DNA of 43,338 bases from the NCBI GenBank assembly GCA_027021705.1, contig JALUTT010000071.1, positions 1-43,338 on the forward strand. The letters run 5' to 3'. Shown piece after piece: positions 2,520 to 6,040 of this stretch. Under the pieces are notes generated by a model. It searched no databases and was not told the DNA's origin. It worked only from the letters and a program-made list of their open reading frames with translations. Origin of the DNA: Anaerolineae bacterium (GTDB lineage: Bacteria > Chloroflexota > Anaerolineae > S140-20). Position numbers and translations under genes: made by a program. Positions within the stretch are counted from its first letter, which is position 1. Each line of letters starts with the position of its first letter.

Positions 2520-3532
2520 CGACGGAGCCCCGCTGCCGGCCCATCGCCCCCCACCTCTACCAGATCGTCCTGCCCACCCCTTTCCCGGTGGGGCCGGTCA
2601 ACGTCTACCTCGCCACCGGCGAACCGCTGACGCTGGTGGACACAGGGCCGCGCACGGCGGAGACCCGGGCCGTCCTGGAGACGGCCCTGGCCGGGCTGGG
2701 CTACACCCTCGCCGACATCCGGCGCATCATCGTCACCCACGCCCACGCCGACCACTACGGGCTGGCGGCGACCATCGTCCGGGAGGGGGGAGCCGAGGTC
2801 TGGACCCATCCCCGCAACCGGCCCGTGCTGGCCGACTACCGGGCCGAGCGACAGCGCCGGCTCGCCTTCTACGATGCGGTGCTGACCCAGGCCGGCGTTC
2901 CCCCCCGGCTCCGCCAGGCCATCCGCCGGAGCTCCCATCGGATGGCTCCCTTCGCCCAGGCCGTGCCGGTGGCCCGGACGCTGGAGGAGGGGGACGAGGT
3001 CGTGCTGGCCGGCCGCCCCTGGCGCGTCCTCTTCACGCCCGGCCACGCCGGCGGGCTCATCTGCCTCTACGAGCCCGAGCAGGCCCTCCTCCTCTCCAAC
3101 GACCACCTGCTCCTGAAGATCAGCTCCAACCCGCTGGTGGAGCCCCCACCGCCCGGGGGTGGGGAACGGCGGCGGGCGCTGGTGGAGTACATCGCTTCCC
3201 TGGAGCGGACGGCCTCGCTGGAGGTCGAGGTCGCCTGGCCCGGCCACGGCGACCCCATCACCGATCACCGGGCCCTGATCCGGCAGCGGCTGGCCTTCCA
3301 CGAGCAGCGGGCCGGCCGGTTGCGAACGGTCCTCGACGCCGAGGGCCGGACCGTCTACCAGATCGTCCAGGCCCTCTTCCCCCGGCTCGACCCTCTCAAC
3401 ACGCTCCTGGCCGTCTCCGAGGTGATCGGCCACCTGGAATGGCTGGAGGTCCGGGGGGAGGTGCGCCGGTGGCGCGAGGGCGAGGCAGTCCGCTGGGGGG
3501 CCGTCCACGCCCCTCCGACCGCGCCGGCCTGA
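2516..3532 (+). CDS. MBL-fold metallo-hydrolase with winged-helix-like C-terminus
   Basis: THAHADH, TPGH, NDH and PGHG motifs; TTG start overlaps the upstream stop. Confidence 0.88.
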   Translation: MTTEPRCRPIAPHLYQIVLPTPFPVGPVNVYLATGEPLTLVDTGPRTAETRAVLETALAGLGYTLADIRRIIVTHAHADHYGLAATIVREGGAEVWTHPRNRPVLADYRAERQRRLAFYDAVLTQAGVPPRLRQAIRRSSHRMAPFAQAVPVARTLEEGDEVVLAGRPWRVLFTPGHAGGLICLYEPEQALLLSNDHLLLKISSNPLVEPPPPGGGERRRALVEYIASLERTASLEVEVAWPGHGDPITDHRALIRQRLAFHEQRAGRLRTVLDAEGRTVYQIVQALFPRLDPLNTLLAVSEVIGHLEWLEVRGEVRRWREGEAVRWGAVHAPPTAPA

Positions 3533-3617
3533 CAACGGCGGCCGTCCTCGGTGAAGCCCAGCCCCGCCCGTTTGACGGCGGAGCATCGGCACTTCAGGCT
3601 GGTGCTGGGCGATCTCT

Positions 3618-3646
3618 TTGACAAATTCCCCCATTTCGTTTATAAT
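3618..3646 (+). promoter_or_regulatory. Perfect consensus sigma70 promoter of the leader/tRNA/HNH unit
   Basis: TTGACA (3618-3623), 17 nt, TATAAT (3641-3646). Confidence 0.85.
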
Positions 3647-3696
3647 TTTGGTATGATTCTATCCGATGCCCATCCTTCCTATCCAGCGGCGAAAAG

Positions 3697-4023
3697 ATGA
3701 CAGGACCGTCTTTTGTTGGGACGAAACGGATGATGTTGCCCAGGGACCTGGATGCCCTCCTGGACCGCCTCGTCGGTGGGCAGGAGTTTGGCCTCCACGG
3801 CCCTATGCCGGGAGCCGTCCGGCGGGTGTCCGTGGTCGGGAGAGAGCATCCCGCCACCATCCACCCCGCAGGGCGCTCGTGGAACGCCTATGGCCCCTGG
3901 TCTGGCACGGGCAGCGAAGTGCCCGCCGTTCCGATCCTGACGTGGCTGGACTGGTTCTTTACCAACGGTTGTCCCTTACTGCTGCGTGATCCCCGCTCCT
4001 CTCCTCCATCGGGAGGAGGGTGA
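3697..4023 (+). CDS. Putative regulatory leader ORF (start may be 3697, 3730 or 3805)
   Basis: Lies between the promoter and the terminator; ends ...TWLDWFFTNGCPLLLRDPRSSPPSGGG*; its 3' end overlaps the antiterminator strand; no recognisable protein family. Confidence 0.5.
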   Translation: MTGPSFVGTKRMMLPRDLDALLDRLVGGQEFGLHGPMPGAVRRVSVVGREHPATIHPAGRSWNAYGPWSGTGSEVPAVPILTWLDWFFTNGCPLLLRDPRSSPPSGGG

Positions 4024-4061
4024 TGTTGCACCCGACGGAAGCACAAGCGCGGGGATGACGC
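3984..4061 (+). promoter_or_regulatory. Putative antiterminator helix
   Basis: GCGTGATCCCCGC (3984-3996) pairs 12/13 with GCGGGGATGACGC (4049-4061), which is the 5' arm and loop of the terminator. Confidence 0.65.
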
Positions 4062-4078
4062 CCCGCGCTTTTTCGTTT
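4045..4078 (+). terminator. Intrinsic terminator/attenuator upstream of the tRNA cluster
   Basis: AAGCGCGGGG-ATGACG-CCCCGCGCTT perfect 10-bp stem followed by TTTCGTTT. Confidence 0.8.
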
Positions 4079-4085
4079 CCGCATC

Positions 4086-4156
4086 GGAACCCCGGCTGCC
4101 AGGAGCGCCTCCCCTGGGCCGGGAGGAGGTGGGTTCGACCCCCACGGGTTCCGCCA
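4086..4156 (+). ncRNA. tRNA-like RNA (pseudo-tRNA, GGG at the anticodon position, reduced D-arm, encoded CCA)
   Basis: Acceptor GGAACCC/GGGTTCC plus GCCA; T-arm GTGGG-TTCGACC-CCCAC; anticodon arm CCTCCC-CTGGGCC-GGGAGG; D-arm only GCT/AGC. Confidence 0.65.
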
Positions 4157-4218
4157 GGGTGTTGGCTCAACACCTCCCTCGTCCGGTCAGGTCCCGTGCC
4201 TGCCGGACGAGGGACCGC

Positions 4219-4292
4219 GCGAGCGTAGCTCAATAGGGAAGAGCACCGGTCTCCAAAACCGGCGGTTGCAGGTTCGAGTCCTGCCGCTCGTG
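4219..4292 (+). tRNA. tRNA-Trp (CCA)
   Basis: Acceptor GCGAGCG/CGCTCGT, D-stem GCTC/GAGC, anticodon arm CCGGT-CTCCAAA-ACCGG, T-arm GCAGG-TTCGAGT-CCTGC, discriminator G; CCA not encoded. Confidence 0.92.
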
Positions 4293-4368
4293 CCTACGAC
4301 GGCCCCGCTGCCAGGAAGCCCGAAGGGCAATGGGGCCGGTCGTTCGAGAAGCATAGGGGAAAAGCCCT

Positions 4369-4441
4369 GCCGAGGTAGCTCAGGTGGTAGAGCGTCTGAC
4401 TGAAAATCAGAAGGTCCCCGGTTCAAGTCCGGGCCTCGGCA
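4369..4441 (+). tRNA. tRNA-Phe (GAA)
   Basis: Acceptor GCCGAGG/CCTCGGC, D-arm GCTCAGGTGGTAGAGC, anticodon arm TCTGA-CTGAAAA-TCAGA, T-arm CCCGG-TTCAAGT-CCGGG, discriminator A. Confidence 0.95.
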
Positions 4442-4444
4442 CCT

Positions 4445-4532
4445 GGGCCAGAGGGTTTCGGGGACTGTGATCCGCTGAGATGCGGACCGCTTTCCCCATC
4501 GGTGCCCTGCCGGTTCGAGTCCGGCGGCCCCC
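4445..4532 (+). ncRNA. Second tRNA-like structured element (intact T-arm, non-canonical remainder)
   Basis: GCCGG-TTCGAGT-CCGGC T-arm followed by GGCCC that can pair with GGGCC at 4445; internal hairpin TCCGC-TGAGAT-GCGGA. Confidence 0.45.
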
Positions 4533-4651
4533 GCGCCCGGTAGGGAGCGTCTCTGCGCGAGCGCACCGGGCCTGACCCCCGCGACGGCGGGTGGGCCGGT
4601 CAGGCGGTGACCAGGGCACCCGAACCCTCGGCCAGCTTGTGGAGGTGCGCG

Positions 4652-5173
4652 ATGGTATCCGTGTTGCTCCTGAACGCCAGCTTCGAGCCACTGGCCGTGA
4701 TCTCCACCCGGCGCGCCGTCTCCCTCGTCCTGCGAGGACGGGTGGAGGGGGTGAGCGGTGAGGTGGTGACGGTTCAAGGGGCCTCCCAGGCCCTCACCAT
4801 CCCCACCGTGATCCGGCTGCGTCGCTACGTCAACGTCCCCCGACGCGGTGCCCGGTGGAGCCGGCGGGGCGTGCTCCGGCGCGACGGCTACCGCTGCGTC
4901 TACTGCGGCGCTCAGGCGGGCGATCTGCAGGGAGGCCGGGTGCTGACCCGGGGGGACTTCACCGTGGACCACATCGTCCCCCGCAGTCGGGGGGGCAAGA
5001 GCACCTGGAGCAACACGGCCTGTGCCTGTCGCGCCTGCAACCAGCGGAAGCGGGACCGCACGCCTCGGGAGGCCGGGATGAAGCTCCTCTGGGAGCCCAA
5101 GACCCCCCGCGCCAGCTACCTGGTGGTCTCCGGCGAGGTCCCGGCTTCCTGGAAGGTCTACCTGCGCCTGTAG
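4652..5173 (+). CDS. HNH endonuclease (McrA-like/HNH_5-type, Zn-finger)
   Basis: GGAGG RBS; N-terminal VLLLNASFEPLAVI; RDGYRCVYCG...TVDHIVPRSRGG...WSNTACACRACNQRK. Confidence 0.92.
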   Translation: MVSVLLLNASFEPLAVISTRRAVSLVLRGRVEGVSGEVVTVQGASQALTIPTVIRLRRYVNVPRRGARWSRRGVLRRDGYRCVYCGAQAGDLQGGRVLTRGDFTVDHIVPRSRGGKSTWSNTACACRACNQRKRDRTPREAGMKLLWEPKTPRASYLVVSGEVPASWKVYLRL

Positions 5174-5186
5174 GGCGCAGAACCGG

Positions 5187-5215
5187 CTGGGGGCAGGTCT
5201 CGGACCTGCCCCCAG
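5187..5215. terminator. Palindrome/REP-like hairpin between convergent genes
   Basis: CTGGGGGCAGGTC-TCG-GACCTGCCCCCAG perfect 13-bp stem. Confidence 0.65.
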
Positions 5216-5263
5216 GGGATGATCGGCGACGGTGCAGGGGCCTGGCATCCGCCAGACCCCCCG

Positions 5264-6040
5264 TTATGCCTGCCTCTCCAGCGCTTCGACGATGGCCTTC
5301 GCCTCCTCCACGAGCCGAGGAGCCGCCTCGTAGATGGCCTTGCCCTCCATATCGGCGGCGATGGCCTCGGGGCTGTGGGAGAGGAAGCCCAGGACCGGGA
5401 GGTCGCCGGCCCAGCGGGTGATGAAGGCCCGGTCCTCCTCCCCCCGCACCTTGTTCCCCACGACGAAGACCCGGCGCACACCGATGTCGGCGGCCAGACG
5501 GGCGATCTGGCGGGCCGTCTCCAGGCTGCGTCGGCCCGGCTCCACGACGACGAGGAACCCATCCACGGCGCTGGCCGTCGCCCGTCCCAGGTGCTCCAGC
5601 CCCGCTTCCATATCCAGGATCAGGACCTCGTCCCGGTAGAGGATGAGGTGGGTGACCAGGGCCTTGAGCAGCGCGTTCTCCGGGCAGAGGCAGCCGCTTC
5701 CACCGGCTTCGATGACGCCCAGTTGCATGAGCCGGATGCCCCGGTACTCGACGCTGAAACGGTCGGGGAGGTCGTCCACGCGGGGGTTCAGCTTGAAGAA
5801 GCCCCCGTAGGTGCCCGGCTTGGCCCCCGTCCGCTCGTAGATGAGCGCCTCCATCTCGCTGATGGGCTCCAGCCGGTCCAGGAGCTCCTGGGGGAGCCCC
5901 AGGGCGTACCCCAGACAGGCCGCCGGGTCGGCGTCCACGGCGATCACAGGACGGCTCTGCTGGGCGTAGATGTGGGCCAGCAGCGCTGCCAGCGTCGTCT
6001 TGCCCACGCCCCCCTTGCCTGCCACGGCGATCTTCGTCAT
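5264..6040 (-). CDS. cooC: CooC/AcsF-like nickel-insertion ATPase (MinD/ParA family)
   Basis: KIAVAGKGGVGKTT P-loop, DADP, GSGCLCP metal motif, LDMEAGLEHLGR; start at 6040 overlaps the ADH stop. Confidence 0.88.
   Translation of the reverse strand: MTKIAVAGKGGVGKTTLAALLAHIYAQQSRPVIAVDADPAACLGYALGLPQELLDRLEPISEMEALIYERTGAKPGTYGGFFKLNPRVDDLPDRFSVEYRGIRLMQLGVIEAGGSGCLCPENALLKALVTHLILYRDEVLILDMEAGLEHLGRATASAVDGFLVVVEPGRRSLETARQIARLAADIGVRRVFVVGNKVRGEEDRAFITRWAGDLPVLGFLSHSPEAIAADMEGKAIYEAAPRLVEEAKAIVEALERQA

Follow-up and report, generated by a model that had tools for sequence, protein, structure and literature searches.

The window analysed here is a stretch of 43,338 nucleotides (nt) from an Anaerolineae bacterium (contig JALUTT010000071.1, positions 1 to 43,338 of the forward strand). 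It belongs to a genome assembly of 5.19 Mb (GCA_027021705.1, called G000 below, its contigs being given as C-numbers). Between positions 3618 and 5173 lie a consensus promoter, an open reading frame of 108 codons (ORF108), an intrinsic terminator and, immediately behind the terminator, two tRNA genes, two tRNA-like RNAs and a gene for an HNH endonuclease. A first-pass annotation had read this arrangement as an attenuator, in which the decoding of Trp and Phe codons in the frame decides whether the tRNA and HNH genes are transcribed. The elements on which this reading depends are the following.

3618 to 3646, forward strand: sigma-70-type consensus promoter P3618 (TTGACA at 3618-3623, 17-nt spacer, TATAAT at 3641-3646; 12 of 12 matches)
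3697 to 4023, forward strand: ORF108, a lineage-restricted frame of 108 codons belonging to no known family and ending in TWLDWFFTNGCPLLLRDPRSSPPSGGG and a stop codon
3943 to 3960, forward strand: candidate control-codon cluster W83-L-D-W86-F87-F88, read from the sequence
3984 to 3996, forward strand: predicted 5' strand of the antiterminator (segment 2), inside codons 96-100 (LRDPR), pairing at 12 of 13 positions with segment 3
4002 to 4017, forward strand: hairpin UCCUCC/GGAGGA, which would sequester a Shine-Dalgarno-like run just before the ORF108 stop codon
4045 to 4078, forward strand: intrinsic terminator with a 10-bp (base pair) stem 4045-4054/4061-4070 containing 8 G-C pairs, a 6-nt loop (4055-4060) and a T-rich tail to 4078
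4049 to 4061, forward strand: segment 3 of the switch, made of the terminator 5' arm and loop
4086 to 4156, forward strand: tRNA-like RNA 1, a cloverleaf whose CCA end is encoded, whose D arm is short and whose 'GGG' anticodon is followed on its 3' side by a pyrimidine
4219 to 4294, forward strand: tRNA-Trp(CCA), supernumerary and divergent (ARAGORN; Rfam, 69.4 bits)
4369 to 4443, forward strand: tRNA-Phe(GAA), supernumerary (ARAGORN; Rfam, 75.8 bits)
about 4445 to 4530, forward strand: tRNA-like RNA 2, an acceptor-like stem and a T-arm without a D arm (fold z = -2.12)
4652 to 5173, forward strand: HNH endonuclease gene (Pfam HNH_5, 2.8e-14, and HNH), with its own Shine-Dalgarno sequence GGAGGTG at 4640-4646

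The perfect TTGACA-17-TATAAT promoter reported by the annotation is present. Such sites (TTGACA-N16-18-TATAAT without mismatch) number 51 in the 5.19-Mb genome, the window region having a G+C content of 65-80%. Several of them stand about 20-30 nt upstream of housekeeping tRNA genes, and the rRNA operon on C10 has two ahead of it. Since several perfect copies precede housekeeping tRNA genes, this is a type of promoter that G000 uses. Contigs from runs X2, X3, X5 and X6 were aligned to the window and differences were counted against it. The X5 contig shows no listed difference in 3615-3647 and nine in 3648-3681; over 3615-4021 it differs at 55 of 407 places, being 13.5% diverged downstream of the promoter. 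We also considered a leaderless frame of 15 codons that would begin with ATG 3653, and dropped it because position 3654 is C in runs X2, X3 and X5. In a motif scan of the forward strand from 3560 to 4640, P3618 was the only sigma-70-like site that agreed with the consensus at 8 or more of the 12 positions; a separate tRNA promoter downstream of 4078, which the annotation had named as a finding that would speak against it, was thus not seen up to 4640. Because P3618 is the only recognisable sigma-70-like site ahead of them, the terminator would gate the tRNA genes and the HNH gene. One could imagine a simpler situation, in which ORF108 is an ordinary small orphan gene served by a promoter and a terminator of its own. 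The RNA helix and the codon cluster described below would then be coincidental, and the tRNA and HNH genes would be expressed by constitutive leak-through, be silent or use another type of promoter. We consider this unlikely, partly because only 8 nt, and nothing resembling a promoter, separate the T tail from the start of the first tRNA-like gene.

The two helices of the switch were found as annotated. The U-tailed 10-bp terminator folds at -19.9 kcal/mol, and the pairing of 3984-3996 with 4049-4061 forms a duplex of -23.8 kcal/mol. As the antiterminator helix takes the terminator 5' arm and loop, the two structures are mutually exclusive. Raw duplex energies are not discriminating across terminators: for 38% of those in G000, an upstream duplex can be found that exceeds the terminator hairpin in stability, a figure that favours the reading of ORF108 as an ordinary gene. 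For this reason per-terminator z-scores were adopted (200 shuffles per terminator, for the 71 perfect-stem terminators in G000). On this scale the antiterminator scores z = -3.61 and ranks 4 of 71, the median z being 0.12. Moreover, the best pairing of the upstream 145 nt with the terminator 5' arm and loop (-25.2 kcal/mol) is reached by only 1 of 1000 dinucleotide shuffles. The cotranscriptional folding suggested by the annotation gave the following order of events: the minimum free energy (MFE) fold contains 12 antiterminator pairs at RNA ends 4061-4066, and the terminator from 4070. The fold of 3930-4078 has two states that lie 2 kcal/mol apart (-57.8 vs -59.8). The parts of the switch are therefore in place, exclude one another and are rare as a combination of sequences.

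The antiterminator helix encloses a structured insert of 52 nt. Such an insert might suit a factor acting in trans on the leader RNA and setting the switch, whether the ORF108 protein, which is conserved and encoded in cis, the HNH protein or an uncharged tRNA. We regard a mechanism of this kind as very improbable, as Rfam gives no match to a T-box or other such element at E <= 1 within 3300-5400, ORF108 matches no RNA-binding family, and its AlphaFold model was uninformative (mean pLDDT, the predicted local distance difference test, 42.9) and was not used.

The same ranking supplied internal controls from G000. The terminator at rank 1 overlaps a match to the ribosomal protein L10 leader of Rfam, scored at 42.3 bits where the gathering score of the family is 44. 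When the six top control loci were compared with Rfam, one matched a regulatory leader and one was an rRNA spacer. At rank 2, locus C117:44454-45090 (L075) has a perfect promoter, a 46-codon frame containing LALLILVLIGLLIL and an antiterminator with z = -4.29; its frame is rich in Leu, Ile and Val and precedes a three-domain thiamine pyrophosphate enzyme resembling acetolactate synthase. It is likely, from its sequence, a leader-peptide attenuator for branched-chain amino acids. Rank 3, on the minus strand of C88 (L076), carries a Thr-rich frame with NTRTRTNTT ahead of an aminotransferase, and rank 7, on C74 (L077), an Arg-rich frame ahead of an ArgC-like dehydrogenase; promoter-like sequences were spotted by eye at both. 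These three loci have the same stop/terminator/antiterminator geometry as the window locus. The gap between stop codon and terminator is 21 nt in the window and 26, 26 and 23 nt in C117, C88 and C74, and the distance from the start of the antiterminator 5' strand to the last base of the stop codon is 40 nt in the window and 32, 34 and 44 nt in the others. Unlike the window locus, these three have short frames, of 46, 55 and 69 codons when counted from the first listed start, ahead of enzyme genes, and they are themselves predictions. A 21-nt gap is normal for any gene, and by itself it would suit an ordinary ORF108 as well; the rank of the window antiterminator beside a known leader and three candidate attenuators argues against coincidence.

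ORF108 was found as annotated with regard to its frame, its end and its codon positions; it is not a short leader, as it has 108 codons and shows purifying selection. Its relatives are P0001 and P0006, at 97-98% identity, and P0002, at 73% and also of 108 residues. The frame is open in all of them, that is, across four distinct sequences (five aligned rows). Over ORF108 the X5 and X6 contigs show 55, 18 and 22 differences and no gaps, for a DNA divergence of 10-17%. The listed X5 differences in 3697-3884 fall on third, second and first codon positions in the proportion 15/8/5 (third positions 15 of 28, binomial p = 0.02), and the ratio of nonsynonymous to synonymous substitution rates (dN/dS) is 0.38 over codons 1-63, vs 0.81 for another frame. 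Judged by its sequence, ORF108 behaves as a translated frame whose protein is under weak constraint. Purifying selection that follows the frame, and blocks of conservation that begin at residue 1, also favour the reading as an ordinary gene.

Constraint is unevenly distributed along the protein. Between ORF108 and P0002 there is one change in the last 21 residues vs 28 in the first 87 (Fisher p = 0.012), and it is this C-terminal part whose codons contain the antiterminator strand and the CCUCC/GGAGG hairpin. In P0001 the change P104L (codon CCA, 4006-4008) could be a C-to-U substitution at 4007 that keeps a G-U pair, as deduced from the protein. Homologues beyond these relatives are scarce. 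ORF108 has no family in Pfam, NCBIfam or PADLOC, and a library of 5.8 billion proteins returned only the 98% and 73% relatives. A library of 1.84 billion proteins gave its own cluster and three proteins of 1147-1335 residues with 4-11 repeated stretches, regarded as compositional matches. The best match of an ORF108 profile outside G000 (E = 2.5e-6) covered 65 residues inside longer frames and was not credible. A metagenome scan returned the window's own contig alone. A genome scan returned one stretch from Promicromonospora, which was rejected as a chance pattern match: its serine codon differs in all three letters, and it lies within a repeat upstream of a permease, without an Rfam match.

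The codon cluster may link the frame to the genes behind it. The Trp codons at 3880, 3898, 3943 and 3952 and the Phe codons at 3955 and 3958 that the annotation had listed were recovered by codon arithmetic. The sequence WLDWFF ends 23 nt upstream of the start of the antiterminator strand at 3984, and its amino acids, Trp and Phe, are the identities of the two downstream tRNAs. In 20,000 random 108-residue segments of G000's own proteins, at least two Trp and at least two Phe within six residues occurred in 0.37% of segments, and in 0.04% when a fixed 20-residue span was imposed. The weaker form found in P0002 (two Trp and one Phe within seven residues) occurred in 4.8% of segments and in 0.7% in the fixed span. 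W83, W86 and F88 are invariant across the five aligned rows (four distinct sequences). The agreement between the cluster and the tRNAs is a further point against ORF108 being an ordinary orphan gene.

Both tRNAs named in the annotation were called by ARAGORN and by Rfam, and they are spare copies. G000 has in total three tRNA-Trp and two tRNA-Phe genes. The other two tRNA-Trp genes lie in tandem on C89, behind a frame that we take to be rpmG-like, and the other tRNA-Phe gene is found on C170, in a Phe-Gly-Cys-Leu cluster. Compared with the C89 and C170 copies, those of the window have different stems and the same anticodon loops. The threshold for membership of the Rfam tRNA family RF00005 is at least 29 bits; the Trp and Phe genes pass it and neither of the tRNA-like elements does. 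The first of these two elements, both of which the annotation had noted, is a cloverleaf that ARAGORN labels tRNA-Pro(GGG), the Rfam tRNA model giving no match at E <= 1. The second, with its acceptor-like stem and T-arm, was called neither by ARAGORN nor by Rfam (E <= 1), and X5 carries many insertions in it, at 4459-4484. In X5, 9 of 259 places differ in 4011-4269 vs 55 of 407 in the frame region. It follows that the terminator, tRNA-like RNA 1 and tRNA-Trp are more constrained than the frame, which is another point against ORF108 being an ordinary orphan gene.

Taken together, these parts suggest a scenario for the gating of an accessory operon that comprises a tRNA-like RNA, tRNA-Trp, tRNA-Phe, a second tRNA-like RNA and the HNH nuclease gene. 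Transcription from P3618 would bring the polymerase to the terminator at 4045-4078, 8 bases before the first tRNA-like gene. Segment 3984-3996, inside the last 13 codons of ORF108, could pair with 4049-4061 instead. A lead ribosome that keeps pace with the polymerase would cover 3984-3996 and reach the stop codon at 4021; no antiterminator would then form, the terminator would fold and transcription would end. When charged tRNA-Trp or tRNA-Phe is scarce, the ribosome would be held at 3943-3960 and 3984-3996 would stay free. The free segment would capture 4049-4061 once it has been made, and the polymerase would continue past the terminator to transcribe the two spare tRNA genes and the HNH gene. 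Footprint sizes of ribosomes and kinetic trapping are taken here at their textbook values, and with such footprints a ribosome at RSSPP would mask the antiterminator strand. It is thus for the positions of the ribosome, the kinetics and the physiological signal that we infer rather than observe.

Several observations weigh against this scenario. First, the full-length MFE fold is the terminator state even with the footprint of a stalled ribosome masked. As the terminator is favoured at equilibrium despite the stalled ribosome, the model needs kinetic trapping. Second, the annotation had likened the locus to the geometry of trp and phe operon attenuation, and the anti-antiterminator of that geometry is not borne out: a candidate trp-like 1:2 helix (3933-3946/3981-3991) is seen in MFE folds, and 556 of 1000 shuffles pair as well. 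Because this helix is unsupported, untranslated RNA should read through, unlike in the trp operon. Third, the length of the frame and the purifying selection on it are unlike those of a short leader peptide and, on these grounds, its product is probably a protein with a function of its own, not a leader peptide that could be dispensed with. The coding score is the top of the six frames, yet below the 5th percentile of real genes, as is its G+C content at third codon positions (GC3 = 0.73), and no good Shine-Dalgarno sequence was noticed ahead of ATG 3697. Fourth, in P0002 W68 is replaced by Arg and F87 by Leu, so that the cluster reads TWSDWLF, and in X5 about 18 differences were counted in 3885-4021, a count given without positions. 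Fifth, the ORF108 profile found nothing credible in 401 genomes of the class, the leader DNA gave only tRNA matches or short weak matches in 41 relatives and these 401 genomes, and no homologous leader appeared in the 41 relatives, the 401 class genomes or the 1.84-billion-protein library. The failure to find a homologous leader in the 401 class genomes also counts in favour of ORF108 being an orphan gene. Finally, extra tRNA would be unable to relieve amino-acid starvation and would be useful only against the loss of tRNA.

A further point on the same side concerns a frame that starts where ORF108 ends.

4023 to 4058, forward strand: 11-codon mini-frame, its ATG overlapping the ORF108 stop codon (TGATG) and its end lying in the terminator loop, behind the hairpin-sequestered GGAGGAGG run

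With its strong Shine-Dalgarno sequence, this mini-frame, which is also listed from an upstream GTG as a frame of 12 amino acids, could bring ribosomes as far as the terminator and so make the switch work the other way round. Ribosomes restarting at ATG 4023 behind the GGAGGAGG run would block the terminator, so that translation would mean ON, a translation-dependent antitermination comparable to the coupling of the pyrBI type. The Shine-Dalgarno-like run (4011-4020) is strong and 5 nt from the ATG, stop and start overlap, the mini-frame stop codon (4056-4058) lies in the terminator loop, and the hairpin that hides the run would be opened by a terminating ribosome. However, the codons GGA GGA GGG are also the conserved C-terminal GGG of ORF108, translation and conservation of the mini-frame are without support, and the unusual antiterminator would be left without a role. 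We consider such an inverted switch highly unlikely.

What the switch would sense is a separate question. The same helices might respond to a general failure of translation, caused by antibiotics, ribosome damage or a broad loss of tRNA, with the Trp/Phe cluster being merely part of the protein. With an anti-antiterminator at chance level, an untranslated leader should form the antiterminator, and 108 codons offer many places to stall; F87 and W68 are variable, and the homologous HNH gene and the trn tRNA array of Anabaena are switched on by inhibitors of translation (PMC8421152, PMC10272220). Against such a broad signal stands the position of the Trp/Phe cluster beside the antiterminator, matching both tRNA identities, with a chance of 0.04-0.4%. 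The frames of the three other candidate attenuators are likewise rich in amino acids that fit, or possibly fit, the genes downstream of them. We therefore find a general stress signal rather unlikely, somewhat more so than the ordinary orphan gene.

In summary, the attenuator reading stands as regards the unusual switch, the placement of the terminator, a frame that looks translated and a rare codon cluster; it does not stand as regards a short leader, the 1:2 helix and the conservation of W68 and F87. That some translation-coupled switch, of whatever kind, operates here is fairly probable. That it is a leader attenuator sensing Trp and Phe and controlling the spare tRNAs and the HNH gene is a proposal we make tentatively, with a little less than even confidence. 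With slightly more reserve still, we suggest a codon-specific feedback, in which the decoding of Trp and Phe is monitored and the terminator/antiterminator switch turns on divergent spare cognate tRNAs together with the HNH nuclease.

Two further structures lie among the tRNA genes. Between tRNA-like RNA 1 and tRNA-Trp, 4157-4218 folds into a double hairpin of -42 kcal/mol without a T tail (z = -5.9, none of 200 shuffles being as stable). The 10-mer GCTGCCAGGA occurs at 4095-4104, in the D-arm region of tRNA-like RNA 1, and again at 4307-4316, in a long hairpin between tRNA-Trp and tRNA-Phe. As GCTGCCAGGA is common to both, the spacer between the two tRNAs may be a degraded copy of a tRNA-like unit.

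The HNH gene that the annotation had placed downstream of the tRNAs is there, with its Pfam matches at 4652-5173, and it connects the locus to accessory tRNA arrays. Its product is 38% identical to the HNH protein of Nostoc PCC 7120 plasmid delta over its full length (158 aligned residues, E = 3e-32), whose gene lies directly upstream of 24 tRNA genes called by ARAGORN. The papers cited above count 26 tRNA genes in the Anabaena trn operon (PMC8421152, PMC10272220). According to PMC8421152, long tRNA arrays (L-arrays) comprise as many as 43 tRNA genes and have a conserved HNH gene upstream, and induction of the trn operon is accompanied by that of the HNH gene all8564; PMC10272220 attributes the control of trn to a repressor, TrcR. 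These papers describe the precedent invoked by the annotation, that of tRNA clusters with HNH genes controlled in Anabaena by a protein repressor. The window resembles the Anabaena/Nostoc trn system in that supernumerary tRNAs adjoin a homologous HNH gene. It differs in three respects. First, the trn array is long (26 genes named, 24 by ARAGORN), whereas the window has two tRNAs and two tRNA-like RNAs, too few for a long array of the cyanobacterial or mycobacterial kind. Second, the order is inverted, the HNH gene being upstream of the array in Anabaena and downstream of the tRNAs in the window. Third, control by TrcR is exerted at repeats that cover the -10 box and the transcription start (PMC8421152, PMC10272220), whereas the window has a terminator. 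CTATCC-like repeats in the 5' untranslated region of the window (about 3660-3685) were considered by eye as sites for a TrcR-type repressor and set aside, being altered in X5.

The association of tRNA genes with this HNH family is class-wide. An HNH homologue is present in 147 of 151 genomes of the class. Among 29 HNH loci that were fetched, 13 have co-oriented tRNA genes 56-147 nt upstream, all of them among the 18 more distant homologues (L027-L044), where the tRNA cluster is often Leu-Ala-Gly-Phe-Gln-His; upstream tRNA genes are absent from all 11 of the closest homologues (L016-L026). The genes flanking the window locus showed no synteny with the fetched HNH loci of relatives. G000 also has a second HNH paralogue (C152:2345-2785, 45% identical to the window HNH), on a contig without an ARAGORN tRNA. 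Downstream of the window gene, a G+C-rich hairpin of 13 bp that lacks a T tail (5188-5215) lies between the convergent HNH and CbiA/ParA-like genes and may be a bidirectional transcription stop.

Leader-peptide attenuation is known for operons of amino-acid biosynthesis and for some aminoacyl-tRNA synthetase genes. In E. coli, trpL, pheL and pheM are such leaders, controlling amino-acid operons and pheST through frames of 14-30 codons. Like them, the window locus has a promoter-proximal frame that looks translated, cognate codons clustered shortly ahead of the antiterminator strand, a terminator 5' arm common to the antiterminator and, directly behind, the genes to be regulated. Unlike them, it would control tRNA genes for the sensed codons and an HNH gene rather than biosynthetic or synthetase genes, its frame has 108 codons and is under purifying selection, two amino acids would be sensed at once, and a supported 1:2 anti-antiterminator of the trp type is missing. 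The leaders of vmlR and lmo0919 offer another comparison, as antibiotic-responsive, ribosome-mediated attenuators upstream of resistance genes. There too a ribosome stalled upstream frees an antiterminator, leading to the expression of genes that relieve a problem of translation, as is proposed for the window; however, their frames are very short and their ribosomes are stalled by drugs, whereas the window has a long frame and a codon cluster matching the downstream tRNAs. On balance the locus is credible as a variant form of leader-peptide attenuation. A full-text literature search found no paper on leader-peptide attenuation ahead of tRNA genes, in agreement with the annotation, whose author knew of no described leader-peptide attenuator for cognate tRNA genes.

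If the model holds, this would be the first known leader-peptide attenuator controlling cognate tRNA genes. It would mean that cells sense the loss of one tRNA species, and not just starvation, and supply replacements for it, which might be of use, for example, against toxins that cleave tRNA or against phage defence. It would also provide a mechanism by which accessory tRNA genes are first silenced and then induced, a question so far answered only for Anabaena, where a protein repressor is involved, and the widespread HNH genes associated with tRNAs would be tied to a response to tRNA loss. With three more candidates in the same genome, the class may, if the model of the window locus is true, use ribosome-mediated attenuation widely.

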